A DNA stretch of 64,000 nt from a virus (IMGVR_UViG_3300014204_013127), one strand, 5' to 3'. Shown: positions 3,376 through 55,132, counted from the stretch's first letter. Notes: generated by a model from the sequence alone, not told the origin. Made by a program: numbers and translations.

Positions 3376-3404
3376 AATCATTAATTCAAAATAGAAAGAA
3401 AAAA

Positions 3405-7712: not shown

Positions 7713-7894
7713 TGCTGTTTATATTGCTTATGATGTTTTTTGTGTGGTGTTGGTGGCTATGGGTGCCTTCTACAATTTTGTTTATTGTTTTGGCCGCTGT
7801 TAGCAAACATGCAGAGTGGTTGTGGGGCATACCTGTTGCCATTATTATTGAGGAAATTTGGTGGATTGCATACTTTAGTGAACACGTAAAATAA
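7712..7894 (+). CDS. small two-TM membrane protein (Trp-rich)
   Basis: 60-aa ORF with two hydrophobic helices; start overlaps the upstream stop. Confidence 0.3.
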   Translation: MLFILLMMFFVWCWWLWVPSTILFIVLAAVSKHAEWLWGIPVAIIIEEIWWIAYFSEHVK

Positions 7895-9644: not shown

Positions 9645-9690
9645 TTAGGTGCAGGGATTTTGATACAATAGCATCATCAAGGAACTAATT

Positions 9691-10959: not shown

Positions 10960-10971
10960 AGGAAATAAATA

Positions 10972-29617: not shown

Positions 29618-29620
29618 AGT

Positions 29621-30433: not shown

Positions 30434-30434
30434 T

Positions 30435-31229: not shown

Positions 31230-31239
31230 TGGTGTAATT

Positions 31240-32968: not shown

Positions 32969-32970
32969 TT

Positions 32971-33618: not shown

Positions 33619-34729
33619 TGCCAGAATATGATTGGTAAGGAATGTTATTGGAATTGCGGTAAAAGCAAATTAGTTTTCTTCCAATTACGAGATATTTGTT
33701 TCTTACAAAATTAGTTCTACCTTCAAACAATGTGTTGATGGCATCTTTGTCATGTTGTGATATATTTCCAATATATAATATATCAATAGTTTCTTGCCCT
33801 GTTTGAACAAACTGAAGGTTTAAATAGCAAGAATCTAATTTTTCTATAAAACTTGGTTCGTATATTATTTTATTGTTTATTTTTATTGCATTGTTGACAT
33901 GCGGTATAAATTTGAAGTTTAAATATGACTTTCCACAATTACACACTCTGACTTGCGGATTGATTTCAAATAAATCATCAGATTCAATTTGATTATTTGC
34001 AAGATTGATTAAGCTTGTGTTTCCAGAAAAAGTTGGAAAAAAATGCAATGTGCGAAATGGGCAGGTGTAAAAGTTAGATGTGATTGACCAATCAACCATG
34101 TTGTTATTAAGGTGGATCGAGGATGGTATTTTGCTGGATTTGAAAAAAGGCTCCCAATCTAAAGTACGGATAGCAAGTATTTTGTCTTGTTTTAAGAACT
34201 CTAAGAAACTTTTTTGTTCTAATAGAAAAAGTAGTGTATTAGAGACGGTGCTGATAGTGATTGGCTCTTTTACGCTATGAAGGAAATTTATCAAAAAAGA
34301 TAGGGCATTGTTTTGGTCCCAATAAAAAATGCCAGCATAATCCATAAGAGAATTATCTTTAACACGCATAATAGCATTTTTTTTATCTCCGCAAGGAAAC
34401 ATTGATTGAATGTATATTGTTTTCCCTATGCTTGGCTTGATTGCAGACTCCATGCTATTGATCCAAAAATCGAAAAACGGACCAAATTTATATTCCCGAG
34501 GTATATTTGTGGAGCCATTTGTCCTTAGAGAAATTGAACTAAAATTTTTACAATCCTCACGGGCAGCTTTTACATCTGAAGCAAAATCGACATAATCGCA
34601 AAAGTTATAGGACTGAATTTCTTGCCATAAAAGTTTGGCACTTTCAAGGGTTGGGTTTTTGTAATATTGATTATAACATTGCAAAAGATTCATTAGGTTA
34701 TTGAAATTGTATATACGGGGCAAGCACAA
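33605..34729 (-). CDS. hypothetical protein (Asn/Ser-rich, TTG start per the ORF track)
   Basis: 374 aa, minus strand, downstream of rSAM-2 and the small peptide. No recognisable motif. Confidence 0.35.
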   Translation of the reverse strand: MCLPRIYNFNNLMNLLQCYNQYYKNPTLESAKLLWQEIQSYNFCDYVDFASDVKAAREDCKNFSSISLRTNGSTNIPREYKFGPFFDFWINSMESAIKPSIGKTIYIQSMFPCGDKKNAIMRVKDNSLMDYAGIFYWDQNNALSFLINFLHSVKEPITISTVSNTLLFLLEQKSFLEFLKQDKILAIRTLDWEPFFKSSKIPSSIHLNNNMVDWSITSNFYTCPFRTLHFFPTFSGNTSLINLANNQIESDDLFEINPQVRVCNCGKSYLNFKFIPHVNNAIKINNKIIYEPSFIEKLDSCYLNLQFVQTGQETIDILYIGNISQHDKDAINTLFEGRTNFVRNKYLVIGRKLICFYRNSNNIPYQSYSGITIL

Positions 34730-34863
34730 ACATAGCCAGCAGTAGAATTTGAATTGGTGCCCGCATTAATTTCCATACACAAGCACTCGTCCAGCAATTG
34801 TTGTAGTTTTTCTGCATCTGGACACTCAAAAGTGATTTTTTCTGCATCTGTTAGTGTTGTCAT
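34696..34863 (-). CDS. small Cys-containing peptide (56 aa) immediately downstream of rSAM-2; candidate precursor peptide
   Basis: Hand translation of the minus strand gives MTTLTDAEKITFECPDAEKLQQLLDECLCMEINAGTNSNSTAGYVCACPVYTISIT. The ATG (34861-34863) lies 12 nt after the rSAM-2 stop and is preceded by AAGGA. It is not in the ORF track because it is under 60 aa. Confidence 0.4.
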
Positions 34864-34875
34864 CATTTTTTTTCC

Positions 34876-36018
34876 TTAGCATAGTTTGTTGTCATTGGCC
34901 ATTTTTTGTATTTGGTGTTGAAGAGCTACTGGATCGCAAAAATTGCTTTTTCCCCCAACAAAATCCAACATCGCACAGCTTCCCCAGCAATACCCTGCTG
35001 CTTGACACTTCATGCATTTTGTGTCATTTAGCAAGGGCATGGTTTTTAAAATTAGGTCATTTCTTCTCTCTATGATTGTACTCAAACTATCTGATAAATT
35101 TCCTATCTTTGTATATGTATAATAATCGCTAAATATATTTTCTGTATAGTCGGTTAATAATACTTCATGTCTGTATTTACAACACCATGTAGGCGTGAAT
35201 ATAGGTTTTAACAATATATCAGCAAAAGATTTGGTGGTTTTCCTGCACTCGGAATGTGGTCCGATAAGCCCTATGTTTATTTGTTCAGGTTTAAATCCAA
35301 ACTGAAGAGCAAAGAGATAATATTCTTTTCGTAGTTCTGGTGTATTGGATGCATCGCCAAAAGAAGCTTTCAAATTGATTTTGTGCCTCAGTCCTTTGGT
35401 TATTAATATTTTCAAATTATTGGTTGTTTTTTCAAATGGACTCCAATTACCTGTGAGTGGTATTCTTTGTGCATCGTTCAACAAATCATTACCACCATCT
35501 AAACTAATGCTTAGTTGGCTTAATTTTTCAATTAAAGATAATCTTCTTTCATTTAGATCAATCGTTAGATTAGAGACCATGCCTATGTGTAAAATGTTTG
35601 CATGAGATTTGATCTTGTCTATAACTTCATGGCATTTTTCTTCTTCCAGTAGGTTTTCTCCACCATAAAAAAATATGCAGATATCTTTGACATTAGATCG
35701 TATTATAAAATCACAAATTTTATCAACATTTAATGGTTTTTGTTGCTTTGCTTCTAAAAGATGCGAGAAGTTGCAGTGTGTGCATCGTAAGTTACATTCC
35801 AATGTTGGTGCTATGTTAAAGTTTAGAAACTTTGGGGGGTCATGAATTATCAACAATTTCAACAAGGACTCTCTTTCTTGTCCCGATAAAAACAAATTGG
35901 ACTCCAACTCGTCAAAGGTCGCAGAAATGGGCAGTTGTTGCCTTGTGAGGGTGTTAAAATAGACTTTTTCCCCACTCTCATTGACAGTTTGGCAGACATA
36001 AAAAGATAGGTTTTTCAT
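34876..36018 (-). CDS. radical SAM/SPASM enzyme (rSAM-2) with ~80-aa N-terminal extension
   Basis: The CNLRCTHCNF CxxxCxxC motif is present. C-terminal CMKCQAAGYCWGSCAM...FCDP fits a SPASM Cys cluster. Confidence 0.7.
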   Translation of the reverse strand: MKNLSFYVCQTVNESGEKVYFNTLTRQQLPISATFDELESNLFLSGQERESLLKLLIIHDPPKFLNFNIAPTLECNLRCTHCNFSHLLEAKQQKPLNVDKICDFIIRSNVKDICIFFYGGENLLEEEKCHEVIDKIKSHANILHIGMVSNLTIDLNERRLSLIEKLSQLSISLDGGNDLLNDAQRIPLTGNWSPFEKTTNNLKILITKGLRHKINLKASFGDASNTPELRKEYYLFALQFGFKPEQINIGLIGPHSECRKTTKSFADILLKPIFTPTWCCKYRHEVLLTDYTENIFSDYYTYTKIGNLSDSLSTIIERRNDLILKTMPLLNDTKCMKCQAAGYCWGSCAMLDFVGGKSNFCDPVALQHQIQKMANDNKLC

Positions 36019-36081: not shown

Positions 36082-38700
36082 ATGAGAGATTATAAAAAAG
36101 AGCTACAGTTGTTGTGCCAGCAAAAAATAGAGAGCTTAGGACTATGTTCAAACGCTCAATATGCAGATCGTCTGAAATTGGAGTTTAGACATATCGACTG
36201 GCAAGATGAGCACTATTATTTAGTGGATTTGTACGAAAGAAAATGTAAGTTTGCCAAAAATGAAAACAATATGTTGGTGGTCCATCTTTTAGGACTAGCC
36301 GATGAATTTGATATCAGCCAACCGCCAAAGTTTACGTTTATTGCCGAGTTCCCCGACATAGATTCAGATTTCTTGCCTGAAATTCAACAGTGGTTAAAAA
36401 ATGTCTGGGCTCCCCAAACCTTTGGGGCGGAATATGTTTGTAATATTGGTAATTATGCCACTTATGGCATCAAATCTGCTTTACAGGATATGGCCAGAGT
36501 TTATGGCTTGAGTCATGATGAAGTCAACACGGTTACCACCCAGATTGAAGATAAAGATGATGAAAATAAACCCATTACGTGGGAAAAAGCTTTGGAGCTA
36601 AACAAGGAATTGGCTGCTTATTGCGAGCAATATCCAGAGGTATATGATGCTGCCAAGCGATTGTATGGCAGGGTAAGGGGAATGGGCAAACATGCTGGTG
36701 GTTTGATTATTTCTAGCATGCCCTTGGCTGATTTTGTTCCATTGGTTGTGGACAAGCAAGGCAATCCGCTTTCAGCATGGACTGAAGGACTGCATGCTCA
36801 AGACTTGGCCCCTGTAGGATTGGTGAAAGTCGATGTATTGGTTATTACAAACTTAGTGCAAATAGCTAAGTGCTTGAAATTGATTCGTGAGCGATACGGT
36901 ATCGACAGGATGTGTAATTTAGAGGCACAGGATGATTGGTCGGACACAGAGAAGTACCAAAATGATCCTGATGCTATTGCTTTGGCAAACGAAGCAAAAT
37001 TAAAGTGCATTTTCCAATTTGATTCTCCCGGCATTAGGGATTTGGCAAAAAAGGGTGGTGTGACTTCATTTGATGATCTAGTGGCATTCACTAGTTTATA
37101 TCGTCCTGGTCCTATGGGCTCTCAACTCCACACCACCTATTGTAAGCGAAAAAAGGGCGAGCCATACGAGTTGCATCCATTGTTAAAGCCTATTTTGGAA
37201 AAAACATATGGGGTGATGTGTTACCAAGAACAGATCATGAAAATCTTCAATGTTATTGGGGGTTTTCCATTGCCTCAATGTTATAAAATTGTGAAGGCTA
37301 TTTCCAAGAAAAAAGGCGAGGTTTTCCAAAAAGCCAAAGTTCAATTTTTGGAACAATGCCAACAAAGATTGGATTATTCTGAGCAAGAAGCTAATGAATT
37401 TTTTGAGAGTATAGCAAAGTTTTCGGGATATGCTTTCAATTTAAGTCATGCTACTTCATATTCGTTTGTTTCTGCAATGCTGTTGTATTTGAAAGCTCAT
37501 TATCCTTTAGAGTTCTTTGCAGCTATTTTGAGTTGTGAAAAAAATGCTGACAAGATTAAAGAATACAGATTAGAAGCCCAAAGATTTGGGGTGCCGATCA
37601 ATCGTATTGATATCAATAAGTCGAAGGTTCATTTTGAAATTATAGACAATGAAATATATTTAGGGTTTGCGGACATTAAGGGTGTTGGTGATGAGGTTGC
37701 TGAAAAAATCGTGGCAGGACAGCCCTATAGTTCTTTTGTAGATTTTATGGAACGATTTGGCACTTATGCTGATGTTTTGAAGCCACTGATTGCTTTACGG
37801 GTTTTTTCTGATGAACCGATGGTTTTGTATGAATTTGCTGAATTCTATCGTTGCAAAAGCAAATCACGCAAAGATCGAGATAAGAGATATATTACTTCTC
37901 AACAAGATCGTCTAGATGAAATTATATCCTTAGTACAATCAGAATATGAGAAAATAATAGATGGCGATTGGTGTGCTCAGTTTAAAGACCTGAAGAAAAA
38001 GGAATTTATTGAAAAGCATAGTGCTATGTGTTTGGACGGCATGGCCGAAGATGTTTTTACAGCCATCAATCAATATAACAAATCTAAAGCCAACAATGAG
38101 AAAAAGGTAGCACTCGATACCGTTATCACAATGGATAATTGGAATCCATCGGGAAAAATAGATCACGAAATGCAGGTTTTATTATCACATCACTTGTCTA
38201 TTGCCGAAAACAAATATTATGGTTTTCCTTGGGATTATGTGTTGACGCAATCTCCTGATTATAAAGGAAGAACCTTTGAGGAGTTCGATATAGCAATTGC
38301 ACAGGGCGATCATGCCATTAAGCCGGTGGAGGTGCAGATAATAGAGAAGCCTCGAATTATGAAGTCTAAGAAAGGATACAAGGTCAAAGTTGTGGACGGC
38401 AATGGAAGAGCAGAAACTGTTACTATTTGGAAAGATGATTTTGAAAGATTTGAGGAAGAAATTGCTTGGTGGGAGCCGACATGCGAGTGGGGCAATTTAT
38501 TACAAATGAGGCTTAAAAAGCCTATGGGGGATTGGAAAGATTACACATTTGAAAGTTTCCCCAGAGAGCTTAGGAAAGAAATGGTGCCTAAGGAAAAAAG
38601 CCAAGATGGTCGTTTGAATGTTTTGCGTTGGCCGGAAAGTGCCATAGTCAAACAAGATGTAATAGATAAAATCAAGGAAGATTTTACTATTATAGACTAG
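36082..38700 (+). CDS. dnaE: DNA polymerase III alpha subunit, C-terminal fragment (palm catalytic aspartates onward, fingers, OB-like)
   Basis: FPDIDSDF is the PDFDVDF catalytic motif. GKHAGGLIIS matches GxHAxGvvI. YCKRKKGEPYELHPLLKPILEKTYGVMCYQEQIMKI matches the conserved fingers region. 872 aa, including an ~85-aa N-terminal extension with no DnaE counterpart. Confidence 0.8.
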   Translation: MRDYKKELQLLCQQKIESLGLCSNAQYADRLKLEFRHIDWQDEHYYLVDLYERKCKFAKNENNMLVVHLLGLADEFDISQPPKFTFIAEFPDIDSDFLPEIQQWLKNVWAPQTFGAEYVCNIGNYATYGIKSALQDMARVYGLSHDEVNTVTTQIEDKDDENKPITWEKALELNKELAAYCEQYPEVYDAAKRLYGRVRGMGKHAGGLIISSMPLADFVPLVVDKQGNPLSAWTEGLHAQDLAPVGLVKVDVLVITNLVQIAKCLKLIRERYGIDRMCNLEAQDDWSDTEKYQNDPDAIALANEAKLKCIFQFDSPGIRDLAKKGGVTSFDDLVAFTSLYRPGPMGSQLHTTYCKRKKGEPYELHPLLKPILEKTYGVMCYQEQIMKIFNVIGGFPLPQCYKIVKAISKKKGEVFQKAKVQFLEQCQQRLDYSEQEANEFFESIAKFSGYAFNLSHATSYSFVSAMLLYLKAHYPLEFFAAILSCEKNADKIKEYRLEAQRFGVPINRIDINKSKVHFEIIDNEIYLGFADIKGVGDEVAEKIVAGQPYSSFVDFMERFGTYADVLKPLIALRVFSDEPMVLYEFAEFYRCKSKSRKDRDKRYITSQQDRLDEIISLVQSEYEKIIDGDWCAQFKDLKKKEFIEKHSAMCLDGMAEDVFTAINQYNKSKANNEKKVALDTVITMDNWNPSGKIDHEMQVLLSHHLSIAENKYYGFPWDYVLTQSPDYKGRTFEEFDIAIAQGDHAIKPVEVQIIEKPRIMKSKKGYKVKVVDGNGRAETVTIWKDDFERFEEEIAWWEPTCEWGNLLQMRLKKPMGDWKDYTFESFPRELRKEMVPKEKSQDGRLNVLRWPESAIVKQDVIDKIKEDFTIID

Positions 38701-43834: not shown

Positions 43835-44020
43835 ATGGAAAAATGCTTCAAAATGCACTGTCGTCATTGCAAGTGGACAGAGCTATCTACTGGCATATCT
43901 GCTGATTTGGCTCATCTTGCCGAAGTAAAAAAGTGTGCTAATTGTGGCGGTCCAAGAGTTTTCAAATGCCCTAAATGCAACACGCAAGTCAAGCTTATTA
44001 GAATTCGGGGAAATACATGA
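43835..44020 (+). CDS. small zinc-ribbon protein
   Basis: CRHC...CANCGG...CPKC in 61 aa. Confidence 0.3.
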   Translation: MEKCFKMHCRHCKWTELSTGISADLAHLAEVKKCANCGGPRVFKCPKCNTQVKLIRIRGNT

Positions 44021-45162
44021 GGTTAATCAAGTCGCCCCCCAAAGCCAAAGAAGAAACAATGGAGGATATTAGTTTTAATGTCCATAAATTTAATGCTCGG
44101 CCTAAGCCCAAAGATATTCGCAAAATTCTAATTATTTCTACGCTTTTTGAGTTTGGGTGTGAAACATTATCTGTGCTTTATAGCATCCCAAAAGTATTAC
44201 AGAATTATGGCGGTTTGTATGTAATTGTCTTAGGATGGTACGGTCGTTCTTATTTGTATCGACACTTGGCAGATGAGTTTTGGGAACTAAAAGAGGAACA
44301 TCAGTGGCTTAGAGATTACTCTAATGCATTTAGCAATTCCTCAAAAAACATTGCCCTTTTGCATAAAGAAGTGGCAAAATTGGGTAATTTTTGCCCACCT
44401 GAGCATTTGGCGGCTTGTGCGATAGTCAATTCTTGTAAAAAATGCAATCATTATTGGCGTGAAGACACCGAAGAATGTCCTAATTGTAAAAACGCAACTT
44501 TTGTCAAATCTTTATTTAATGATATACATTTTTGGAAACGATTGGCAATTCCTTTGCCACCTCCTTCGCCTGATAAGATGGAGGAAGCAAAAAAATATTT
44601 AAAGCCAAAAAGTGTGGCTGTTTTCGCTAGAGGCAGAGCCACCTATGGCAGGAATTTACAGCCTGAATTTTACGTTAAATTGGTTAAATTATTGCGTGAC
44701 ATGGGTTATAATCCAATTTGGTTGGGCGAAAAACAGAGTACACAAGCCTGTCCTGTTGATGGAATCATAGACATGTCTCGCAAGATAGAAGCCAGAGATT
44801 TAGAACTAACATTTGCGATTGTGAAACAATGCGAATTCACAGTGCAGTTTTGGACAGCTTCTACACGTTTGGCTGGAATGATGGGAGTGCCTTATATTTT
44901 AGCAGAAAGTCCAGATCAAATTTGGGGAATAGGACAAGAAGGTTATAGAAGAAATTTATGTGATTTCGGACCAAGAAAACTTATAGTTTCTCATTTCTGG
45001 AATGCGTATAATGACAATGAGGCATTTATCGATTTGACTAAGAGGGCTATTTTAGAAATGAATATTGGAAACTATGAAGATATTTTTGGATTACTAGAGA
45101 CGGAACATGTGGCACAACAATGGAAAAAAGAGAATGATAAAAGAATTGGAGCTTACACATGA
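44017..45162 (+). CDS. GT9-family (ADP-heptose heptosyltransferase-like) glycosyltransferase with internal Cys cluster
   Basis: Architecture parallels GT9. The N-domain reads KILIISTLFEFGCETL. KPKSVAVFARGRATYGRNLQPEFYVKLVKLLRDMGYNPIWLGEK...DLELTFAIVKQCEFTVQFWTASTRLAGMMGVPYILAESP compares with the iavfpGas...K.WP...f..L...L...G..vvl.G.......a.li...dlfIgnDSG.mHLAaA.g.P.vaLfGpt consensus. An insert CPPEHLAACAIVNSCKKCNHYWREDTEECPNCKN carries two CxxC pairs. Confidence 0.45.
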   Translation: MRLIKSPPKAKEETMEDISFNVHKFNARPKPKDIRKILIISTLFEFGCETLSVLYSIPKVLQNYGGLYVIVLGWYGRSYLYRHLADEFWELKEEHQWLRDYSNAFSNSSKNIALLHKEVAKLGNFCPPEHLAACAIVNSCKKCNHYWREDTEECPNCKNATFVKSLFNDIHFWKRLAIPLPPPSPDKMEEAKKYLKPKSVAVFARGRATYGRNLQPEFYVKLVKLLRDMGYNPIWLGEKQSTQACPVDGIIDMSRKIEARDLELTFAIVKQCEFTVQFWTASTRLAGMMGVPYILAESPDQIWGIGQEGYRRNLCDFGPRKLIVSHFWNAYNDNEAFIDLTKRAILEMNIGNYEDIFGLLETEHVAQQWKKENDKRIGAYT

Positions 45163-46322
45163 TAGATGTTGATGTCCCATCCATACTAACCCGAGCCGCA
45201 GATAAATGTGGTTTTACTCGCACCCGATGGGTGGAGAAGGACATCCCTGGCAATTTGTCCAATATTTGTACTGTTTTATTTTTTGGGGACATACGATCCA
45301 GTTTTATACTTTCTTCTATGTTGTTAAAGCGTTATCGTGAACAAGTAAAAACTTCTAAATATTTCATTGTCTGCACTTGGCCCGGTTATGAGCATCTTTT
45401 TCCTTATGTGAATGAAGTGTGGACGATACGTGAAGAAAGTGTTTTGAAAAAGTTTGCTTTGTCTGCCAATGGTTTTGACAACGAATCTGAGTTAAGTGTG
45501 CATTTTAGAAGGGAATTGAATTATTGGTTGGAAGATGTCGCCGGGCCAGAAGTATTTTTGTCAGTTTATGACAATGGAATCAAGAAGGAATTTTGGGATA
45601 AGTTCAAACATGTTCGCAGATATTTGATGAGCGTTCCTTCATCTGGTATTTTAGGGGCCGAATTTAATAGGCAATTGATTGCAAGTGGTGCAAAAGTTTT
45701 ATTATATCCTGTAGAACAGATACGGTCCTGGCGGCAGGGGTCTTTGACTTACATAAAGAGTCCGAAGAGTTTTTGGGTAAAATTAGCAGAAAGCTTGGTT
45801 GACAGTGGTATTACTCCCATTATTTATCAAAATTTTACAACTCATGATCTTTCCACAGAACTACCCAGTTGCATGTATACAACTGAGAAGGATGTGGTAA
45901 AATTAATGGGTGTCATGAGAACAGTAGGATGTGTGTTAGATGTGTTTTCTGGTATTTCTCGTTGGTCTATGGCAGCAAGAGCCCCGTTTGTGGCATTAGA
46001 TGAGCGTTTAAGGTATAATGGGCAAAAAGAGTATGAGATAGATGATTTATTGGCGGATAAAACACTTCCAAGGCGATATATATTTTCTTTTCCTAATATT
46101 GTACCAGAAAATAGCGTAGATGTATGGAAAAATAACTTTTTTGATGTTATACTATCTACTGTGGGGTCATTTTTGAAGGAATTAGATCGAGAAAAGTGGC
46201 CATCGCCAGTAGAAAGAGAAGAGATCGTACTCTATGATAATGTACGACAAATGCGAACCAATAAAATGGGTGCAAAATTTTTAAAAGTAAATAGAGACTT
46301 GAGGAGTACAACATGGCAGTGA
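45159..46322 (+). CDS. GT9-like glycosyltransferase (second copy)
   Basis: Similar architecture: NICTVLFFGDIRSS N-terminus and a ...VGCVLDVFSGISRWSMAARAPFVALDE C-terminal block. Confidence 0.4.
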   Translation: MIDVDVPSILTRAADKCGFTRTRWVEKDIPGNLSNICTVLFFGDIRSSFILSSMLLKRYREQVKTSKYFIVCTWPGYEHLFPYVNEVWTIREESVLKKFALSANGFDNESELSVHFRRELNYWLEDVAGPEVFLSVYDNGIKKEFWDKFKHVRRYLMSVPSSGILGAEFNRQLIASGAKVLLYPVEQIRSWRQGSLTYIKSPKSFWVKLAESLVDSGITPIIYQNFTTHDLSTELPSCMYTTEKDVVKLMGVMRTVGCVLDVFSGISRWSMAARAPFVALDERLRYNGQKEYEIDDLLADKTLPRRYIFSFPNIVPENSVDVWKNNFFDVILSTVGSFLKELDREKWPSPVEREEIVLYDNVRQMRTNKMGAKFLKVNRDLRSTTWQ

Positions 46323-46537
46323 ATTGTAGAGCGATTTTGCGGGTGGAACATGGAAAGTCGCCCGAAGAAAACTTTAGGAATTTGTTGGGTAAGTTTAGAA
46401 AAAAAACAACGGATTCTGGTGTGATGACCTTGTGGAAATCAAAACAGTATTTTGAAAGCAAGGGAGAACGCCGTAGGCGAAAAGAAAAAGCGGCCCAAAT
46501 GAAACGCATAAAAGCAAATAGACCAAAAACAGTATAA
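46313..46537 (+). CDS. rpsU: ribosomal protein S21
   Basis: 74 aa. FRNLLGKFRKKTTDSGVMTLWKSKQYFESKGERRRRKEKAAQMKRIKANR matches the S21 pattern ALRRFKR...GvL.E.rrReFYEKP...RKR....A.KR. Confidence 0.6.
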   Translation: MAVNCRAILRVEHGKSPEENFRNLLGKFRKKTTDSGVMTLWKSKQYFESKGERRRRKEKAAQMKRIKANRPKTV

Positions 46538-46547
46538 GGTGTAAAAT

Positions 46548-46808
46548 ATGGCACAGAATGTAATGAGTATATCGCTTCCATTAGAGATGCAAGAATTACT
46601 AGATGTATCTGCGAAAAAAATGGGATGGAACAAATCTGAATTGCTCAGAAAACTGATTACCAAGGGATTGGACCTTGTGGTAGTGGATGGAGAAGAAATT
46701 CCTGTAATCCTGAAAATTCCTAACGAACTTAGGGGACAACCCGAGGTATTACGTAAATGGCTGTATCAAAAGAGCGATGCGATAACGACCAAACTATCCC
46801 AAAAATAA
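46548..46808 (+). CDS. ribbon-helix-helix (CopG/Arc/MetJ-like) DNA-binding protein
   Basis: MSISLPLEMQELLDVSAKKMGWNKSELLRKLI is an N-terminal beta-strand followed by helix-loop-helix, typical of RHH proteins. Confidence 0.45.
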   Translation: MAQNVMSISLPLEMQELLDVSAKKMGWNKSELLRKLITKGLDLVVVDGEEIPVILKIPNELRGQPEVLRKWLYQKSDAITTKLSQK

Positions 46809-47290
46809 TTCCAGTTGACCAAATTCCCAAAGCTGGCTCTGCTGATAAATCCCCCGTGGAATTGTATAAGATATTTGCTGCATTAGAAATTTTGTGCAAA
46901 TTACGCAAAGGAATTGGTCTTCATGCGGTACAGGTGGGGTTGCCTTGGAATATGTACGTTGTCAGAAAATCGGCAGAGATGCCATTTGGCTACTATTTAA
47001 ACTGCAAATATACGCCCATAGAAGATGAAAAGGTATCATCTTTTGAGGGGTGCTTATCTCTCACAAATCCTGATGGATCGTCTCGTTGGTTTAAGGTAGA
47101 TCGGTTTAAAAAAATCCGAGTGGAAGGCCAACAACTGTATGTGGACGGAAAAATCAGAATAGATGCGGTAGATATGGTATTGTCTGCTGAAGAGGATGGT
47201 ATTTTGTGTGTCGCCCATCAGCATGAAATTTCACACGGTGAGGGAGTGCTGATATCTGACATTGGAGAAGAACAACACATTTGGATGTAA
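46757..47290 (+). CDS. def: peptide deformylase
   Basis: Motif I GIGLHAVQ (GxGxAAxQ), motif II EGCLS and motif III QHEISH (QHExDH) are all present. The start is uncertain because the ORF overlaps the RHH gene. Confidence 0.65.
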   Translation: MAVSKERCDNDQTIPKIIPVDQIPKAGSADKSPVELYKIFAALEILCKLRKGIGLHAVQVGLPWNMYVVRKSAEMPFGYYLNCKYTPIEDEKVSSFEGCLSLTNPDGSSRWFKVDRFKKIRVEGQQLYVDGKIRIDAVDMVLSAEEDGILCVAHQHEISHGEGVLISDIGEEQHIWM

Positions 47291-47579
47291 GGAAAACATT
47301 ATGTTGAGTCAAAAACAGTTGCAAGATATTTGTTTAATGTTTGTGGGAGATCATCGACAATGCCGATATTTACAAGAAGACCCATTGGCATGGCAGTGGT
47401 ATTGCATAAAACACAAAAAAGTCGCAAAAAAACGCATGGATGAGACGGTAAACGAATTTTTAGAAAACTGCAAAATAACAGGTATTGACCCCCATGTTCA
47501 GGGAGTAGCTTTGGGGGATAATTGCCCTGGCTATCCGATATTCAAGAATATAGAGCAAGGGTACGACAAATCCCCTTGA
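47262..47579 (+). CDS. hypothetical protein
   Basis: 105-aa ORF. Confidence 0.3.
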   Translation: MEKNNTFGCKENIMLSQKQLQDICLMFVGDHRQCRYLQEDPLAWQWYCIKHKKVAKKRMDETVNEFLENCKITGIDPHVQGVALGDNCPGYPIFKNIEQGYDKSP

Positions 47580-47604
47580 CACATTTTTTTTATGATGTCA
47601 TAAT
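47576..47604 (+). promoter_or_regulatory. sigma70-like promoter TTGACA-17-CATAAT
   Basis: TTGACA at 47576-47581, a 17-nt spacer, CATAAT at 47599-47604. An AGGAG ribosome-binding site precedes the ATG at 47645. Confidence 0.45.
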
Positions 47605-48655
47605 TATTTAAATAATAGACCAGTACCCTTTACAGGAGCATAAAATGTCTGTGTCTACTCTTTTTTACGAAGAAACAGAAGAGCAAGGGGTCGAGTTCGT
47701 TGATGATTATTTTTTGGAAAATGTGGAGGAATTGGCAGTAGGATACTTGCAAGATTTTTTTGCCAATAAGCAACTTCATTGTGGCGGCAGAATTAGTCCC
47801 AATATTTTCAAATCCGCTGCCTGTATTGATCGAGCATTAAACACCTCTATTGAAGAAGGCGTGCCTTTAGCCTATGAATTGATTGAAAGGGAAGGCATAA
47901 AAGGAGGTGTTCAACTGGTGTTGGGTGTGTTGAATAGATGCAGTCAGTTAGGCATTCCCAAATGTTTCAGGGCTGGTATTTTATTGGTAAACCTGGAACT
48001 GTGTTATGGGGTAGTGATATAATGATTTTATATCACTTTGCTGAAAAAATACACCTGACATCAATTCTTGTGCAGGGATTACGAATAAATACAGGACACA
48101 AAGGACTAGGAAATGTAAGGTATTATATAGAGCGTTATGGAATGCAGCCCATTTTTTTAACTGATGATCCGCAATACATAGTTGACACAATGGATATACA
48201 TGTGCATTCGCATTGTATTTTGTTGAAGGTAAATTGTTCGGGGTTGGATATAGAGCCAGAATATGATTGGAATACTGTTTATTTGCACCCAAAATTTTAT
48301 CCAAATGGAAAACAAAAAACATTTATTTGCAGAGATGATATCTCTTCTGATAGAATACAAATATGTTAGATTCAGATGCTGAGCTAAAATTTATTGCCAA
48401 CAAAGAAGTGGCTATTCCAAAAGAAAAACTTTATTTGCTCAAGTATTTCAGAACCTCCGTTCAGCAGTGTTTTTTATCATATTATCTTCTCTATGGCGAT
48501 TATTTTCGTTTTACTGAGCACACAGGGCATAAGTGCAGTGTGCGGTGGATGTTTGCAATGCGTGTTAAAATGGAAAAAATTGAAGCCGCTCACGCTGTGG
48601 CCAAGAAAAATTTTGATTTAGATGCATTAGCTGATATAGAAAATGGCAAATATAA

Positions 48656-49132
48656 GTGGAGAAAATTATGAACTACAGTGATTTATCAGATATTGCACAT
48701 GAACAATCACTAGACAATATGACAAATGTTCCTGCTTTATTGTCGGAAAAAGACACAAGAGCCATCAAGACAAATCTGCAACTTACTCGTACTAAAGATC
48801 GTACTTTTGTAATCGTGTTGGCTTTGCATAAGGAATTGGGAAGAAATGCTTTGCAAAAAATAAGATGCGAATGTGGCTCCCCTTTGGGCGGGTATGTTTA
48901 CGATAATGTAAATGATTGCTATTATGTCAGATGTGTTGATTTTCTATCACTGTCTTATGTGCCGCTCGCTTGTTTGTTGAGAATGAAAGATAATAACTTT
49001 TGGCAAATGTATGTTCCTTTGCCGGAAGCATTGTTGATACGCAATTTAAGCCCAGATGCCAGCAACAAATTAAAAGCTTTTAAAGCTGTTTACAAAGATC
49101 ACATTTTTCAATATGTGCAATTAATAGAATGA
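48656..49132 (+). CDS. hypothetical protein
   Basis: 158-aa ORF. The region 47645-48671 holds several mutually overlapping small ORFs whose true structure is unclear. Confidence 0.3.
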   Translation: MEKIMNYSDLSDIAHEQSLDNMTNVPALLSEKDTRAIKTNLQLTRTKDRTFVIVLALHKELGRNALQKIRCECGSPLGGYVYDNVNDCYYVRCVDFLSLSYVPLACLLRMKDNNFWQMYVPLPEALLIRNLSPDASNKLKAFKAVYKDHIFQYVQLIE

Positions 49133-49647
49133 AAAAAAGAACACCACCACGAGAAGTACCTACCCGAGACGAGCGTTATATGGGGCTGGCATTTTGTATT
49201 GCTCAATTGTTTTCTAAAGACCCACACACACAAGTAGCATCAGTAATTGTGGGTGATGAAAATCGTCCTAAGGGCTGGGGATACAATGGTCCACCACAAA
49301 GCATTGCAGATGACGAAGTGGATTGGAGCCGCCCAGAAAAATACGACATGATTGTGCATTCGGAAATCAATGCTATTAACCACTCTTTTGGTTCATTAAA
49401 AGAAGCAACTATTTATATTACGGCCCCTCCCTGTCCCAGATGTATGCTGGAAATTATAGCGGCTGGAATTGACAAAATAATATATTTCAATTTCAGGGCA
49501 GATGCTGGTTCTTCTGTTAATGCTGAAGCATTAGCTAAAATAGAGGAAATTGCCAAGAAAGCCGGGATTCAGCTTACAGAATTTTCTGGAAACTTAAACT
49601 GTGTGAAAGATGCGGTTGCAGACATGGATAGAATAGGAATTTTTTAA
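49129..49647 (+). CDS. dCMP (deoxycytidylate) deaminase
   Basis: HSEINAI and APPCPRCMLEI form the zinc-binding H(A/C)E...PCxxC signature of the CDA/dCMP deaminase fold. Confidence 0.65.
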   Translation: MKKRTPPREVPTRDERYMGLAFCIAQLFSKDPHTQVASVIVGDENRPKGWGYNGPPQSIADDEVDWSRPEKYDMIVHSEINAINHSFGSLKEATIYITAPPCPRCMLEIIAAGIDKIIYFNFRADAGSSVNAEALAKIEEIAKKAGIQLTEFSGNLNCVKDAVADMDRIGIF

Positions 49648-49672
49648 TGTTTTTTGTGAACATATATAGGAT

Positions 49673-50461
49673 ATGACAGTTTGCAACACACAACTCGGCG
49701 TTCCTGGCTACAGCCAAAACAATTGCGGCACTACTTGCAGTTCTGATTTCTGCATCAAGCGTCATGATACTCGACCTGCCTTCAAAGTCTCGGTTTCTGA
49801 CTGTGATGGTCCTATGGACCTTACCAGTGAGTTACTGGTGGTAGAAGCCAGCATGTGGAGTAATGTTAAATTAAAGACCAGCATTAGCGAAACAGATGAG
49901 TATTTTAGGCTGGCTGACGATGTTGGTTTTCAACAAATTATGCAGAATGATATCATAGTGGTAGATCGCACAAGATTGCCCGAACAAATGCTGGTAACGG
50001 GATTTGATGAAGCCAACAAATTAATACGTGTGCAGAGAGGTTATCATGGTACTTTGCCAGCATCGTATAAAAAAGGACAAACTTTAAAAGCGTTTCGTAT
50101 TTTGAATTCACCCGGTGAAATAGAATTAGTTTACGATGACATTCTTAATGTAGATGGTAGCACAAGCACAGATCAACTTATAGATTCTTACTTGGTTTAT
50201 AATTTCTCCGCACTCGACACTTGTGTTCCTGGGTGTTTTTTGTTAGAATTCAGATTATTGAAAATGGCCGAGCCGGAACCTTCAGTTCAGTTGACTTTTG
50301 CACCAGAGATAATACCCAGTTTTACTCCAAGCACCTATACACCAACAGATTTTGGTTGTGTTGCTGGCGAGGGGATAGAGTGGGAAAGACGATTTCCAAC
50401 ATCTTCGGAAGGCTTTGTGATAGGCATTATTGATAGTCCAACTTCAGAAATCTTGTTGTAA
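49673..50461 (+). CDS. hypothetical protein
   Basis: 262-aa ORF. Confidence 0.35.
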   Translation: MTVCNTQLGVPGYSQNNCGTTCSSDFCIKRHDTRPAFKVSVSDCDGPMDLTSELLVVEASMWSNVKLKTSISETDEYFRLADDVGFQQIMQNDIIVVDRTRLPEQMLVTGFDEANKLIRVQRGYHGTLPASYKKGQTLKAFRILNSPGEIELVYDDILNVDGSTSTDQLIDSYLVYNFSALDTCVPGCFLLEFRLLKMAEPEPSVQLTFAPEIIPSFTPSTYTPTDFGCVAGEGIEWERRFPTSSEGFVIGIIDSPTSEILL

Positions 50462-50471
50462 GGAATATTTC

Positions 50472-52034
50472 ATGTCGAGTGTGTCAGACTTTTTAGTAGA
50501 AAGAATGGAAAATGCGGGCGTAAAACATGTGTTTGGCTTGCCTGGAGACCATATTACTAATTTTTTCAAAAAATTGTCCAAATCAGACGTTGAAGTAGTT
50601 CATACTACACAAGAAATAAATGCGGCGTTTGCCGCCGATGCTTATGCTCGTATTCGTGGTGTTGGATGTGTTTGTGTATCACAAATGTCAGCTTTGAAAA
50701 TAGCAAATGCCATAGCTTGTGCAAAAGCAGAGCATTCTCCTGTTATTGTTATTTCTGGGGCTAAATCACAGGGCCAATGCCAGGAGAGCTATCACAATAA
50801 AGTGTTTCAATATTTGACCTGTGCCTCCACCACATTGAATAATGTTAGCACTGCTGGCTATCAAATAGATTCTGTGTTGGAAAAATTAAAATATCACAAA
50901 CAACCAGTATTCATTGAATTGGCAGAAGATATTGCTGATAAGACTTTGGTATATGATGTTTACAAACAGGGCACACCCTCTGCTCCCGAAAGTAATAAAG
51001 AGATTTTAGAAGAAGCGTTGGCAGAAGTGGTAGACTGGTTGAATGAAGCTAAAAAGCCCGTTATTTTGGGCGGAATTCAATTAGATCGTCATGGCTTGGG
51101 TGCCCTTCTTTTGAAGTTTGCCGAGAAATATAACATTCCGGTAGTTACCACGCTTTTAAGCAAATCTCTAATTGATGAAAGTCATCCCTTGGCGATTGGG
51201 GTTTATGCAGGAGCAGGAAGCAATCCAAAAGTTCAGGAAACAATTGATACATCTGATTGTTTGTTGGTTTTAGGCGTATCTTCTTGCCAGAATTTGCCCG
51301 CTAATAAACACACAGTTACGTGTTCTTCAGAACTGTGTATTAAAAATCATTTCTATGCAGATAAGGTTGGTTTTGAAGATTTTATCCGGGCTTTATTTAA
51401 AGCCTCAATTCGCCGGGAGGGCTTAGCCACAGTCATTGCAGCCCCAATCAACAAAGAGTTCCGACCACGCAGTGGTGTTAAAATTACTGTGGCGAGGTTT
51501 TTTGAAAAAATAAATAGTATTTTGAATGCCAATTCTATTATTGTATCCGATGTGGGGGATTCATTATTCGGTGCAAGTGATTTAATTACCCATCAACATG
51601 GATTCTTTGCAACAGCATATTATCCAAGCATGGGTTTCGCTCTACCAGCCGCTCTAGGATTACAAACCGCCGTTCCCAAGATGCGTCCAATAGTTATTTT
51701 GGGAGATGCGGCTTTTCAAATGTCTTGTAGTGAACTAAGCACAATTGTTGCTCGTCGTTTGAACCCCATAGTATGTGTGTTAAACAATGGTGGTTATGCA
51801 AGCAATTCAATTACTGGTCCTTTTTATGATATTCATGAATGGGACTATGAAAAAATGGTGGATGTAATTTCTGGAGGTATGGGAGCTTTAGTAGAAGATG
51901 AACAAACGCTACACTCTGTTATGAGTGCAGCCCTTGTGAATGAGTCTGTGTGTGTTATCAATGTAAAAATTGATAGTGATGATGTGTCGCCTGTTTTACA
52001 AAGAATGAGAAAGGGTATAAAGACAAGCAAATAG
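50472..52034 (+). CDS. thiamine-pyrophosphate-dependent 2-keto-acid decarboxylase-family enzyme
   Basis: N-terminal Pyr domain VKHVFGLPGDHITNFF. The C-terminal TPP-binding motif is GDAAFQMSCSELSTIVARRLNPIVCVLNNGGY (GDG...NN). ATG at 50472. Confidence 0.65.
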   Translation: MSSVSDFLVERMENAGVKHVFGLPGDHITNFFKKLSKSDVEVVHTTQEINAAFAADAYARIRGVGCVCVSQMSALKIANAIACAKAEHSPVIVISGAKSQGQCQESYHNKVFQYLTCASTTLNNVSTAGYQIDSVLEKLKYHKQPVFIELAEDIADKTLVYDVYKQGTPSAPESNKEILEEALAEVVDWLNEAKKPVILGGIQLDRHGLGALLLKFAEKYNIPVVTTLLSKSLIDESHPLAIGVYAGAGSNPKVQETIDTSDCLLVLGVSSCQNLPANKHTVTCSSELCIKNHFYADKVGFEDFIRALFKASIRREGLATVIAAPINKEFRPRSGVKITVARFFEKINSILNANSIIVSDVGDSLFGASDLITHQHGFFATAYYPSMGFALPAALGLQTAVPKMRPIVILGDAAFQMSCSELSTIVARRLNPIVCVLNNGGYASNSITGPFYDIHEWDYEKMVDVISGGMGALVEDEQTLHSVMSAALVNESVCVINVKIDSDDVSPVLQRMRKGIKTSK

Positions 52035-52037
52035 TTT

Positions 52038-52559
52038 ATGCAAAAAGATCAGCAAAAGTTCTGTCGTGTTAATCGACAAATCAGATTCTCGCCAGTAATG
52101 GTTATCTTAGGCGAAGAAAAATTGGGCACAATGCCTACTTCTCAGGCATTAGAAATTGCGGTGAGAGAAGGTTTGGACCTTGTAGAAGTGGCTCCAAATG
52201 CTCGACCACCAGTTTGCAAAATAATGGATTATGGCAAATTTCGCTATGAGCAAAGCATTAAAGAAAAGAAGAGTAAGTCGCAAACAAAGGCTCAGCAACT
52301 TAAAGAAATACGTTTGCGGCCTTCTATAGCCACTCATGATCTTGATGTGAAGATAAATTCTGCACAAAGATTCCTTGAGGCTGGAAATAGGGTTCAACTT
52401 ATGGTAAGATTCAAAGGTGCAGAAAATGCTCACAAAGACCTGGGTTTTAGCCTTATGCAGAAAATGATTGATTCTTTGGTTTCTTGTGGGAAACCCCTGA
52501 GCACTCCCCGATTAGAGGGAAAAGGGGTGAGTTGTATTATTGAACCCATGAAGAAATAA
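52038..52559 (+). CDS. infC: translation initiation factor IF-3
   Basis: ALEIAVREGLDLVEVAPNARPPVCKIMDYGKFRYEQ...KEIRLRPSIATHDLDVK...VRFKGAENAHKDLGFSL parallels E. coli IF3 block for block. The true start may be a non-AUG codon, as in bacterial infC. Confidence 0.75.
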   Translation: MQKDQQKFCRVNRQIRFSPVMVILGEEKLGTMPTSQALEIAVREGLDLVEVAPNARPPVCKIMDYGKFRYEQSIKEKKSKSQTKAQQLKEIRLRPSIATHDLDVKINSAQRFLEAGNRVQLMVRFKGAENAHKDLGFSLMQKMIDSLVSCGKPLSTPRLEGKGVSCIIEPMKK

Positions 52560-52560: not shown

Positions 52561-53499
52561 ATGAATGATATTCGAGAAGAAATAGATGCTGCTCTCGCTC
52601 AGACGGGCGAAGTTCGCAAAATTTATTCTGAATTCTTTAGATTTATTGGCGATACAGACGTAGAAGATGTAAAAGCAGTTTTGGGGCGTGACCTTGGCTC
52701 TTTTTTACACGGCTTGTGCCCCGTCTTGAATCTGTTACATCCTGATCTTCAAGATGTGCTTGGCTATTGTCATGTCGCCAAAATTACACAAGCAATAGAG
52801 GCAGCCACCTTTGCTAGGAAAAGGGGCTATGTTCTTTTGCATCAAGAGCTTTTTAGGGTTCTCAAGCCGGAAATCAAGGATATAGAGGACAAAATAAGAC
52901 TGATGAAGATGTGTGCCCGGCTTTTGCAAAGAGGAGAAAAAGAAGCTGCACGACTGGTGAAAAGCACGCAAGCCATTGATTTGACTAATGCCTATAGGAA
53001 ATGGAGCGATAATATCCCTCTTAATTTTGACCTATATGTGAGGCACAACATGGCTTACAAGGCAGAAATAGAAAAATTTGAGAAACAGGCCGAGCATTTC
53101 AAGCGTTTGGGCTGTGAGTCCATGTGTGCAGAGATTAAAAAATCATTGGATGTTTTTCAGGAATCCTTTGGTGACACACACTATGGATTTCGCAGAATTA
53201 CCATGACGCTTATTGCTTTAATTTTGGGGAAAATGCACGGGTGTTCTATATCTTCAAATTATGTGCCTGCTGCTTATCCCGCCCATCTTTTAGACTTACC
53301 AGATAGAATCAAAAATGCTATTGGCATAACAGAAAACTTCCCAGAGGCAGCCGGTAATCCTATTTTTGATTATTATATTGTCGTCTCTCCTAAGATAGAT
53401 ACGCCGGGAAAATTATCGGAATCCATTGCTGACAAATCTATTTGCCCAGTTTTATTGGGCGAAAGAGATGGAAAATGTTATTTTATTTCGATATTTTGA
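52561..53499 (+). CDS. hypothetical protein
   Basis: 312-aa ORF. Confidence 0.4.
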   Translation: MNDIREEIDAALAQTGEVRKIYSEFFRFIGDTDVEDVKAVLGRDLGSFLHGLCPVLNLLHPDLQDVLGYCHVAKITQAIEAATFARKRGYVLLHQELFRVLKPEIKDIEDKIRLMKMCARLLQRGEKEAARLVKSTQAIDLTNAYRKWSDNIPLNFDLYVRHNMAYKAEIEKFEKQAEHFKRLGCESMCAEIKKSLDVFQESFGDTHYGFRRITMTLIALILGKMHGCSISSNYVPAAYPAHLLDLPDRIKNAIGITENFPEAAGNPIFDYYIVVSPKIDTPGKLSESIADKSICPVLLGERDGKCYFISIF

Positions 53500-53801: not shown

Positions 53802-54122
53802 ATGGTTCCGAAAATTATTGGTTGTAGACCTGTGGGTTCGCAAGTTCTTGTAGAGCATCTTACCGACAATGAAATGTTGGGCACCACCATGATTTTGCCC
53901 GGTGGCAAAACATCTGGGCATGAAGTGCAACAATCCATAGTATTAGATTATGGGCCGTCATTTGATCCCAAAACATGGGGTTATGACAAGGGTGATCGTG
54001 TAATGGTGGTGGGAAGCTATAATCCTGTTCCAAAGGTTAGTGATGACCAAGTGCGAGAAATGGGTATTATTGAACCCCATAACGTCAGGGCTGTATTGTT
54101 ACAAGCTCCCGAAGAGGAATAA
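53802..54122 (+). CDS. GroES-like co-chaperonin (Hsp10 fold)
   Basis: RPVGSQVLVEHLTDNEMLGTTMILPGGKTSGHEVQQSIVL parallels the GroES RPLhDRVIVKr.e.E.ktaGGIvLp..a.ek...G.VvAvG block. It sits directly upstream of dnaJ. Confidence 0.4.
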   Translation: MVPKIIGCRPVGSQVLVEHLTDNEMLGTTMILPGGKTSGHEVQQSIVLDYGPSFDPKTWGYDKGDRVMVVGSYNPVPKVSDDQVREMGIIEPHNVRAVLLQAPEEE

Positions 54123-54130: not shown

Positions 54131-55132
54131 ATGGATTATTATGATGTTCTTGGTGTCAATAAAGATGCTAGCGAAGAAGAGATTAACAAAGCCTTTCGAG
54201 AGAAAGCAGTAGCTTCACACCCAGATATCAACCCAAATAAGCCAGAATTGGTTGAGCAATTTAAAGAAGTTGCCAAAGCTTTTGAAACCTTGGGCGATCC
54301 TCAAAAAAGGGCTCAATATGATCGTCAAAGATCGGGTATTGGGACGCCCTTTGGTTTCAACTTTGGTGGCGACATTTTCGGCAACATGTTTCGAGGGCCA
54401 ATGGGTCGCTCCCGACAACATCCTATAGTTGTCGAGGTAGTTCTTACTTTTCAGGAATCTATATTAGGTTGTAGAAAAGATATTCCTGTAAAAGTTCGTG
54501 CTAAGTGCAAAGAATGTACTGATGGCGTCAAAGAGTGGAAAACCTGTGATGTTTGTCATGGTTCTGGTGGACAAACATCACATCAAGGGCCATTTGTTAT
54601 ACATACAACATGCACCGCTTGTGGCGGGCAAGGCAAAGTTGCCCAAACAAAATGTGACGCTTGCTCAGGAAGCGGATACAAAGGCACAGAGGAGAATATC
54701 GTATCTGTTGATATTCCTTCGGGGATTGAAGACAGAAGTGTGTTGCAAGTACCACATGCAGGAGAAGTTGATTCAAATGGCAGAAAAGGTGATTTGCACA
54801 TTAAAGTCACGGTGCAATCACATCCGTTTTATACTCGGCACGGACCCCATATTTTTTGCCATGTGCCTGTAACATATACTCAATTGGTTTTGGGTGCTGA
54901 TATAGTGGTCCCTACACTTACTGGTGAAGTCAAGATGACGATCCCTCCCAGGACTGTGGCAAACAAGAAGCTTCGTCTACGTGGAATGGGAATAGCCAGA
55001 CAACATGGTGATATGTACGCAGTTTTAGAACCAAAATTCCCAGATCAAACTGACAAAGAATATGATGAAATAGTGCAAAAATTAGCTAGTTGGGAAAAAG
55101 CACATATCAATATCGCATTCCCATCACAGTAG
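54131..55132 (+). CDS. dnaJ: DnaJ (Hsp40) chaperone
   Basis: The J-domain has YYDVLGV and the HPD motif (ASHPDINP). Four CxxCxGxG-type zinc-finger repeats follow (CKECTDG, CDVCHGSGG, CTACGGQGK, CDACSGSGY), then a C-terminal substrate-binding domain. Confidence 0.8.
   Translation: MDYYDVLGVNKDASEEEINKAFREKAVASHPDINPNKPELVEQFKEVAKAFETLGDPQKRAQYDRQRSGIGTPFGFNFGGDIFGNMFRGPMGRSRQHPIVVEVVLTFQESILGCRKDIPVKVRAKCKECTDGVKEWKTCDVCHGSGGQTSHQGPFVIHTTCTACGGQGKVAQTKCDACSGSGYKGTEENIVSVDIPSGIEDRSVLQVPHAGEVDSNGRKGDLHIKVTVQSHPFYTRHGPHIFCHVPVTYTQLVLGADIVVPTLTGEVKMTIPPRTVANKKLRLRGMGIARQHGDMYAVLEPKFPDQTDKEYDEIVQKLASWEKAHINIAFPSQ

Follow-up and report, generated by a model that had tools for sequence, protein, structure and literature searches.

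Probable long-conserved phage copies of ribosomal protein S21, peptide deformylase and initiation factor IF3 in a packed gene block of a huge-phage lineage

The viral sequence IMGVR_UViG_3300014204_013127 was analysed over its 64,000 nucleotides (nt), a stretch referred to below as the window, with the attention on three genes whose products are related to components of bacterial translation: ribosomal protein S21 (bS21), peptide deformylase (PDF; Def for the window protein) and initiation factor IF3. All three lie on the + strand, S21 at 46313-46537, Def at 46757-47290 and IF3 at 52038-52559, and each product matches its family profile above the curated cut-off, so that the preliminary description of this DNA, made from the sequence alone, was right in naming an S21, a Def with its three motifs and a full-length IF3. 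The two other translation genes that it listed are real as well. The tmRNA, which has the tag peptide ANDYVALAA, is found at 22272-22618 (+ strand; ARAGORN; Rfam RF00023, 119.6 bits), and a truncated class I Glu/Gln-tRNA synthetase catalytic domain of GluQRS-like type is encoded at 7894-8610 (+ strand; PF00749, 83.4 bits; best NCBIfam match GluQRS, 89.7 bits, below the cut-off). With S21, Def, IF3, the tmRNA and the GluQRS-like gene all present, the investment in translation is real, as had been proposed.

The S21 homologue has 74 amino acids (aa) and reaches 39 bits with PF01165 (cut-off 27) and 40.2 bits with TIGR00030 (cut-off 28.95); its open reading frame (ORF) also matches phrog_21469, which is annotated 'ribosomal protein S21'. 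The identity to S21 of Escherichia coli and Bacillus subtilis is 16-20% in the alignment, in which the core aligns, and comparison with these two proteins and 27 relatives showed the core F-(K/R)-(K/R)...G-(I/V/L)...(F/Y)-E-(S/K)...basic tail to be present, with F28 invariant and E48 and K57 conserved in at least 90% of the sequences. The N-terminus is longer by about 8 residues. When 1.84 billion representative proteins were scanned in full with HMMER, only 42 relatives came up at E ≤ 1e-3, most of them 70-97 aa long with a common MAxNxRVE N-terminus, and by these comparisons the window S21 belongs to a small, divergent, N-terminally extended S21 subfamily. A 4-residue insertion in helix 1, considered at one point, was gone in the larger alignment, and the N-terminal extension describes the protein better. 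As to the C-terminal tail, to which the preliminary description had drawn attention, both features looked for are absent: the C-terminus (...KANRPKTV) contains neither the RLY/KLY motif nor an aromatic residue of the Tyr54 type. RLY/KLY is the C-terminal motif of Gamma/Betaproteobacterial-type bS21, and the C-termini of phage S21 proteins were analysed previously (Watson 2020, PMC7550191). The start of the gene is preceded by the Shine-Dalgarno (SD) sequence GAGGAG, 6 nt before the ATG and among the best SDs in the window, and this ATG overlaps the stop codon of the preceding gene by 10 nt.

Def is a protein of 177 aa that matches PF01327 with 49.9 bits (cut-off 22.8) and phrog_2890. It remains below the NCBIfam equivalog/subfamily cut-offs (best 44.9 vs. 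125), and because it falls so far under the equivalog cut-offs it is regarded as a divergent PDF. The catalytic motifs read G52-x-G54-L55-x-A57-x-Q59 (motif 1), E97-G-C-L-S101 (motif 2) and Q155-H-E157-x-x-H160 (motif 3); an alignment of Def with E. coli PDF and six phage orthologues shows these residues to be invariant, and all metal-binding and catalytic residues are kept. Compared with the canonical GxGLAAxQ, motif 1 of the window protein is GIGLHAVQ, the first Ala being replaced by His. After H160 the chain continues for just 17 residues, vs. 33 in E. coli, which is likewise the case for all orthologues from the related phages (the clade described below), and the clade PDFs stop 11-13 residues past a conserved LISDIG that itself comes after HExxH. 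Judged by this alignment, Def has no counterpart of the C-terminal helix by which E. coli-type PDF (type 1B) docks to the ribosome. The AlphaFold2 (AF2) model of Def, based on nine sequences, is of moderate confidence (pLDDT 63), and in a Foldseek comparison with the PDB all 50 matches listed are PDFs, including that of cyanophage S-SSM7, with TM-scores of only 0.38-0.51. The S-SSM7 enzyme (PDB 3UWA/3UWB) turns up in the sequence matches of Def as well as in its fold matches, at an identity of only ~28%; it is type-1B-like, has the same three motifs, and its PDB chain is likewise short (154 aa). Def differs from it in the His of motif 1 (GIGLHAVQ) and in an N-terminal extension of ~9 residues, and the host of the window phage, as far as can be told, is no cyanobacterium, unlike that of S-SSM7. 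The cyanophage PDF was, reportedly by Frank and colleagues in 2013, described as having no C-terminal helix.

IF3 (173 aa) scores 97 bits with IF3_N (PF05198), 88 bits with IF3_C (PF00707) and 170.6 bits with TIGR00168 (cut-off 60), in the last case over model positions 3-170 of 170, and its E-value with the Geobacillus IF3 in the PDB is 1.7e-39. The layout of N domain, Lys-rich linker and C domain aligns throughout with E. coli and Geobacillus IF3; the protein is 40-49% identical to bacterial IF3s, Planctomycetota being nearest, and shares with the infC product the two-domain architecture, the linker and most conserved C-domain residues. Loss of those residues, named in the preliminary description as the finding that would speak against the assignment, is not seen: D106, K110, F117, L118, G121, H137 and G141 (E. 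coli numbering; invariant in the alignment) are retained, and the basic residues at 99, 116, 129, 131, 147 and 168 are either unchanged or exchanged conservatively, with K at 131, 147 and 168. Two arginines, which set the window protein apart from bacterial IF3, are substituted, as a survey of the alignment columns in 30 viral and 79 bacterial sequences shows (viral IF3 loci are numbered L001-L038 and bacterial ones L039-L118). R133, which is Arg in 79/79 bacterial and 28/30 viral sequences, is Ala in the window, and R25 (window residue 21), which is Arg in 74 of the 79 bacterial proteins, is Met; in addition Q33 is replaced by Lys. A hydrophobic residue (Met, Leu, Val or Ile) occupies position 25 in 63 of the 120 nearest IF3 homologues, vs. 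4/79 bacterial ones, while the R133A change occurs in 2 of these 120 only, the window and L001 lineages. Arg25 is retained in the IF3s of the syntenic loci L003, L015 and L038. It was reported that R25, Q33 and R66 touch the elbow of the initiator tRNA and that the joint replacement R25A/Q33A/R66A lowers initiation fidelity in E. coli (PMC9723500); a literature search gave nothing usable on the function of Arg133. In a neighbour-joining tree of IF3, for which the bacterial sample is biased by the search patterns, the window and L001 proteins fall into a Planctomycetota-dominated cluster and the syntenic L003, L015 and L038 IF3s lie outside it.

In the cell, infC classically starts at an AUU codon, is repressed by IF3 itself and is followed by rpmI-rplT, and an excess of IF3 represses AUU-initiated infC and tightens or shifts start-codon discrimination. 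The arrangement in the window differs from the bacterial thrS-infC-rpmI-rplT operon on both counts, as IF3 has an AUG start instead of an AUU-type one, and no L35 or L20 gene was found 3' of it. The ATG stands immediately 3' of an in-frame TAG-TTT and lacks an SD; since it lies just 3 nt past the stop codon of the gene for a thiamine-diphosphate (TPP) enzyme, translational coupling of IF3 to that gene is suggested. The same trend is visible among viral IF3 genes in general. In a census of starts, an ATG 3-30 codons 5' of the conserved N-terminal motif was found in 21 of 30 non-redundant viral IF3 genes vs. 16 of 79 bacterial ones (Fisher P = 2e-6), whereas no ATG, GTG or TTG at all was available in 38/79 bacterial infC genes vs. 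3/30 viral genes, as is expected for AUU-type starts; these counts are to be read with the provisos that the bacterial sample was picked by peptide patterns, that GC content differs between the sets and that the presence of an ATG is not the same as its use. At least 41 of the 80 bacterial loci have L20 or L35 after infC. Among the viral loci none has L20 after IF3, and the only one with L35 is L006, whose 6.6-kb contig probably comes from a bacterium. These gene starts are most simply read as a loss of the autoregulatory start in phage IF3 genes, and the window IF3 probably escapes IF3 autoregulation, because it starts with AUG and lies outside infC-rpmI-rplT. No publication describing the loss of the AUU start in phage IF3 genes was found in a text search of titles and abstracts.

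The three genes are parts of a longer gene arrangement. The order S21, ribbon-helix-helix (RHH) gene, Def, then dCMP deaminase, TPP enzyme and IF3, and finally DnaJ recurs in LR756511.1 and in contigs from IMG/VR and JGI, at least five large phage contigs besides the window altogether, the block from S21 through IF3 to DnaJ being carried by L001/L119 (374 kb), L003 (189 kb), L015/L027 (136 kb), L038 (595 kb) and L120 (62 kb). Because the order is conserved at protein identities of only 25-55%, which is beyond chance, the comparison indicates an arrangement that is old and stable. The RHH protein (CopG-like; 46548-46808, + strand; PF01402, 23.3 bits; phrog_7325) is encoded between S21 and Def in every clade member. 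The dCMP/cytidine deaminase (49129-49647, + strand; PF00383, 60.6 bits) is kept in L001, L038, L119 and L120. The TPP enzyme (50430-52034, + strand), which has the domains TPP_enzyme_N, M and C and is indolepyruvate/phenylpyruvate decarboxylase-like (TIGR03394, 219.8 bits, below the cut-off), stands directly 5' of IF3 in L001, L015, L038, L119 and L120. DnaJ, with J domain, CXXCXGXG domain and C-terminal domain, is encoded at 54131-55132 (+ strand).

With respect to transcription, the genes form two packed blocks. The first one (44017-47579) comprises two paralogues, S21, RHH, Def and a small protein, with stops and starts that overlap or nearly abut; after a gap of 65 nt a second packed block runs to 53499 and includes the TPP enzyme, IF3 and a 312-aa gene. 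The only strong promoter-like site of the region, a sigma70-like TTGACA-17-CATAAT with extended TG (11/12 matches), is situated in this gap, the one sizeable gap that separates the blocks, at 47576-47604 (+ strand), and it is treated as a lead only, as promoter-like sites overall are not above shuffled expectation. S21/Def and IF3 are probably in different transcription units.

The relationship to a huge phage is best seen in LR756511.1 (SR-VP_PHAGE_COMPLETE_CIR-CU-CL_42_23), a curated circular genome of 595,163 bp from vernal-pool mud, which is the locus L038 and whose terminase and major capsid protein (MCP) were placed in the trees of Al-Shayeb et al. (2020, PMC7162821). Protein-level comparison matched 24 window proteins with this genome, in the same order and with 23-65% identity. 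The collinear stretch includes DUF444/SpoVR, DnaE, the two paralogues, RHH, Def, dCMP deaminase, TPP enzyme, IF3, DnaJ and dUTPase up to a glycosyltransferase, and an S21 ORF is also present at the expected position. As the protein identity is only 23-65%, the window phage is a different species or genus from LR756511.1. Proteins identical to the window IF3 and S21 are encoded on a 340,072-bp contig, and five related contigs were found in IMG/VR; a megablast search with 20 kb of the window gave no nucleotide match among INPHARED phages. Phage-type genes in the window are those for a phage metallopeptidase, PhoH, HNH and dUTPase, together with the tmRNA, and they are accompanied by a PrkA/DUF444/SpoVR set, glycosyltransferases and several radical-SAM enzymes; for many of the ORFs there is no family match. 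The 64 kb yielded neither a capsid nor a terminase gene, and no tRNA genes, rRNA genes or bacterial operon contexts were found either. By its size class (above 200 kb, as given by the 340,072-bp contig) and its kinship to a curated phage bearing capsid and terminase genes, the window is part of a huge phage, and the phage origin assumed in the preliminary description is confirmed by the synteny with LR756511.1 and by the identical proteins on the 340,072-bp contig.

Taken together, the most probable interpretation (about 0.7) is that the window derives from a huge phage of the LR756511.1 clade, in which the three genes would be vertically inherited, long-conserved phage copies of host translation parts, placed in a co-directional, packed auxiliary block rather than in an operon of their own. 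On the basis of what the protein families are known to do, we infer a possible mode of action. Phage bS21, made from a strong SD, would replace host bS21 on the 30S platform by the anti-SD, and such a swap would bias initiation towards phage mRNAs or sustain it on them. A minimal PDF without docking helix, like the cyanophage PDF, could sustain deformylation during the burst of phage protein synthesis. Phage IF3, started from AUG through coupling to the TPP-enzyme gene, would escape AUU-based autorepression; a raised IF3 pool would then provide more free 30S subunits and change start-site proofreading, and the phage protein might also repress the AUU-initiated infC of the host. DnaJ and the tmRNA would extend the theme to folding and ribosome rescue.

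Several points weigh against this interpretation. S21, at 16-20% identity, is very divergent from cellular S21 as judged by alignment, and so is Def by its position under the NCBIfam equivalog cut-offs. IF3 is without Arg25 and without the near-invariant Arg133, so it may behave in a non-canonical way. The genes are non-contiguous and probably not co-transcribed, and three of the five translation loci fall within 6.25 kb in ~20% of random placements on 64 kb. Expression, ribosome association and selectivity for phage mRNAs are features that we infer. An assignment of the host through IF3 was abandoned, as the protein is 40-49% identical to those of many phyla; for the 595-kb relative, Al-Shayeb's own profile is 82% unknown.

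A stronger version of the takeover idea, according to which S21, IF3 and Def constitute a co-adapted module that re-specifies the 30S subunit for weak-SD, non-canonical or leaderless phage mRNAs over host mRNAs, is unlikely in our view. It is established that S21 and IF3 both act on the 30S platform, and the use of SD in the window is weak yet present, GGAG being found before 13% and AGGA before 22% of genes, ~4x background. The loss of the Arg25 contact and the change of Gln33 to Lys would also fit, given the fidelity defect of R25A/Q33A/R66A in E. coli (PMC9723500), but the loss of Arg25, although common in the nearest homologues, is not clade-wide, for L003, L015 and L038 keep Arg. Finally, IF3 adjoins Def or S21 in phage contigs without other synteny to the window: IF3 is followed by Def with a 24-nt gap in L017 (10001-11046; S21 at 2140-2460, 7.5 kb upstream) and by Def in L021 (449-2038), and an S21 homologue follows IF3 in L029 (10001-10856). 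Def and S21 occur within 10 kb of IF3 in 3 and 2, respectively, of ~25 loci on unrelated phage contigs, numbers too small to claim enrichment, and the recurrent association outside the clade is suggestive only.

What counts against a module of this kind is, in the first place, the organisation of the genes. Def and IF3 are separated by eight genes that are unrelated or of unknown function, including those for dCMP deaminase and the TPP enzyme, and by the probable promoter at 47576-47604, and with a P of about 0.2 for the proximity itself, the '6-kb toolkit' of the preliminary description does not hold as a unit. Nor is there a sign of leaderless translation. Promoter-like sites between 43 and 56 kb number 34, vs. 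38.4 ± 6.8 in dinucleotide shuffles, terminator-like sites 9 vs. 9.3 ± 2.9, and intergenic DNA makes up only ~3.2 kb of the 64 kb in the greedy ORF set, where the sole enriched word is the ribosome-binding motif AAGGA/AGGAAAAA. The S21 gene has its strong SD and Def has GAGG, so both carry SDs themselves. The proposal of very short leaders after predicted promoters was for these reasons not upheld, and leaderless genes were rejected as a candidate: the promoter-like sites are at shuffle level and the intergenic DNA holds no motif besides the AAGGA-type SD. Packed and overlapping genes point instead to polycistronic translation, because stops and starts overlap or nearly abut. Moreover, features of phage S21 were found to be unrelated to phage ribosome-binding sites (Watson 2020, PMC7550191). 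A narrower proposal is that an unregulated, AUG-started IF3 with R25M, Q33K and the lost Arg133 and the divergent, extended S21 are a co-evolved 30S pair, which would favour phage mRNAs and shut off the AUU-dependent infC of the host; this pairing we hold to be rather doubtful. If it were true, the loss of the AUU start would be a general signature of viral IF3 and a testable takeover route.

A further explanation, quite improbable in our judgement, is that the genes are replacement parts or anti-defence functions that keep translation going after shut-off by the host or by a defence system, without redirecting ribosomes. The tmRNA, the GluQRS-like gene and DnaJ are functions of the maintenance type, IF3 is freed from the host autoregulatory circuit, and upkeep of translation efficiency is the role that Al-Shayeb et al. 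(2020, PMC7162821) propose for PDF and elongation factors. Set against this, S21 and Def have diverged strongly from their cellular counterparts, which suggests a function that is altered and not merely duplicated. We know of no defence system that targets S21, IF3 or PDF.

Some of the database records would make the proteins cellular. The window IF3 (P0001) and S21 (P0121) are named in NCBI under a 'Proteobacteria bacterium' metagenome-assembled genome (MAG), and the relative P0016, 54% identical and located in the same gene block, bears the name 'Candidatus Thorarchaeota archaeon'; these records are likely mis-binned huge-phage contigs in cellular MAGs. That the window could be a piece of a bacterial chromosome or megaplasmid with ordinary housekeeping copies, as these names and the similar gene suites of some large plasmid-like elements (Al-Shayeb et al., 2020, PMC7162821) would allow, is highly improbable, in view of its synteny with a curated circular phage bearing capsid and terminase, the five related IMG/VR contigs, the absence of L35/L20 after IF3 and of a formyltransferase match in the ORFs flanking Def (46548-46808 and 47262-47579), the lack of tRNA and rRNA genes in the window and the prevalence of ORFs without family match.

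Other observations were made in and around these genes. The two distant paralogues 5' of S21, at 44017-45162 (381 aa) and 45159-46322 (387 aa) on the + strand, are possibly glycosyltransferase-like; BLASTP between them gives E = 0.002, one has a zinc-ribbon insert, and their match to the glycosyltransferase model TIGR04372 is weak (29.9 bits, below the cut-off). They are retained in every clade member and are translationally coupled to S21. In L120 the block (2493-3719, 10459-12036) also has an indoleamine-2,3-dioxygenase (IDO) and an aldehyde dehydrogenase, and together with the TPP enzyme this hints at a phage-encoded aromatic or indole metabolism. The 312-aa conserved protein (52561-53499, + strand), which starts 1 nt after the IF3 stop, has no Pfam, PHROG or NCBIfam match; its orthologues follow IF3 in L003, L015 and L038, and not in L001/L119. 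For the gene before DnaJ (53802-54122), a GroES-like identity was considered and rejected, as comparison with Pfam, PHROG, NCBIfam and the PDB gave no match and the AF2 model from a single sequence had a pLDDT of 41. The GluQRS-like gene and a glycosyl-hydrolase-like ORF are located amid the genes for PrkA kinase, DUF444 (YeaH-like) and SpoVR at 4915-12570, of which DUF444 and SpoVR are 56% identical to their LR756511.1 counterparts.

DnaE (Pol III alpha) is split in the palm domain into two ORFs 20.6 kb apart, 14116-15453 (445 aa, PHP and N part) and 36082-38700 (872 aa, C part), unlike that of LR756511.1, which is one 1179-aa ORF (L038 7126-10665). A split intein at the break was rejected, for there is no intein-sized insert and the C part opens with ~88 additional residues, among them a degenerate duplicate of the junction motif. 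Between the halves (15.5-36 kb) are the tmRNA, an SPFH protein, an AAA ATPase, radical-SAM enzymes, glycosyltransferases and a methyltransferase; GC content is 0.34-0.35 at 28000-36000, vs. ~0.40 elsewhere, and the intervening DNA looks like an inserted island. An open frame exceeding 1100 aa, in which long poly-Ser tracts and repeats of beta-rich segments occur, extends from ~60.6 kb to 64000, off the window end, and is possibly a virion or fibre protein.

Translation genes of this type in huge phages have a history in the literature. Viral ribosomal proteins were treated by Mizuno et al. (2019, as cited in Al-Shayeb et al., 2020), and IF1, IF3, S21 with N-terminal extensions, PDF and tmRNA were reported from huge phages along with the hypothesis of ribosome takeover (Al-Shayeb et al., 2020, Nature 578:425, PMC7162821). 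The gene kinds shared with the window (IF3, extended S21, PDF and tmRNA) and the proposed role are the same there; phage copies of S21, PDF and IF3 and the takeover idea, as presented in that article, were thus published already in 2020, and the window is a further example. We found no description of the arrangement S21-RHH-Def/TPP-IF3 or of an AUG start in phage IF3 in its main text. Phage bS21 was also studied in lake phages infecting Bacteroidetes, where it is expressed late and is mostly found beside structural genes, PDF and IF3 being outside the 20 commonest neighbours of phage bS21 (Chen et al., 2022, ISME Commun, PMC9723584). The bS21 of those large phages is likewise small and basic and is believed to take the place of host bS21, to the advantage of phage mRNAs. 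It differs from the window S21 in its surroundings, prohead protease and MCP as compared with glycosyltransferase-like genes and RHH-PDF, and the window S21 is without the Tyr54-type aromatic of the C-terminal tail and without RLY/KLY. The takeover interpretation given in the preliminary description is on the whole partly supported: it is right as to the kind of function and had been published before, it makes too much of a module, and on leaders it is mistaken.

With the window, the clade of 340-595-kb phages that carry S21, PDF, IF3 and tmRNA gains a further genome. Since the arrangement is fixed over deep divergence, it argues for functional genes and not recent accidental captures. Phage IF3 genes mostly have an AUG and stand outside the infC operon, by which a phage could raise IF3 beyond the reach of host feedback. 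The main lead is an AUG-start IF3 with altered tRNA-contact residues, and it would bear on the long-standing idea that huge phages reprogram the initiation of translation.

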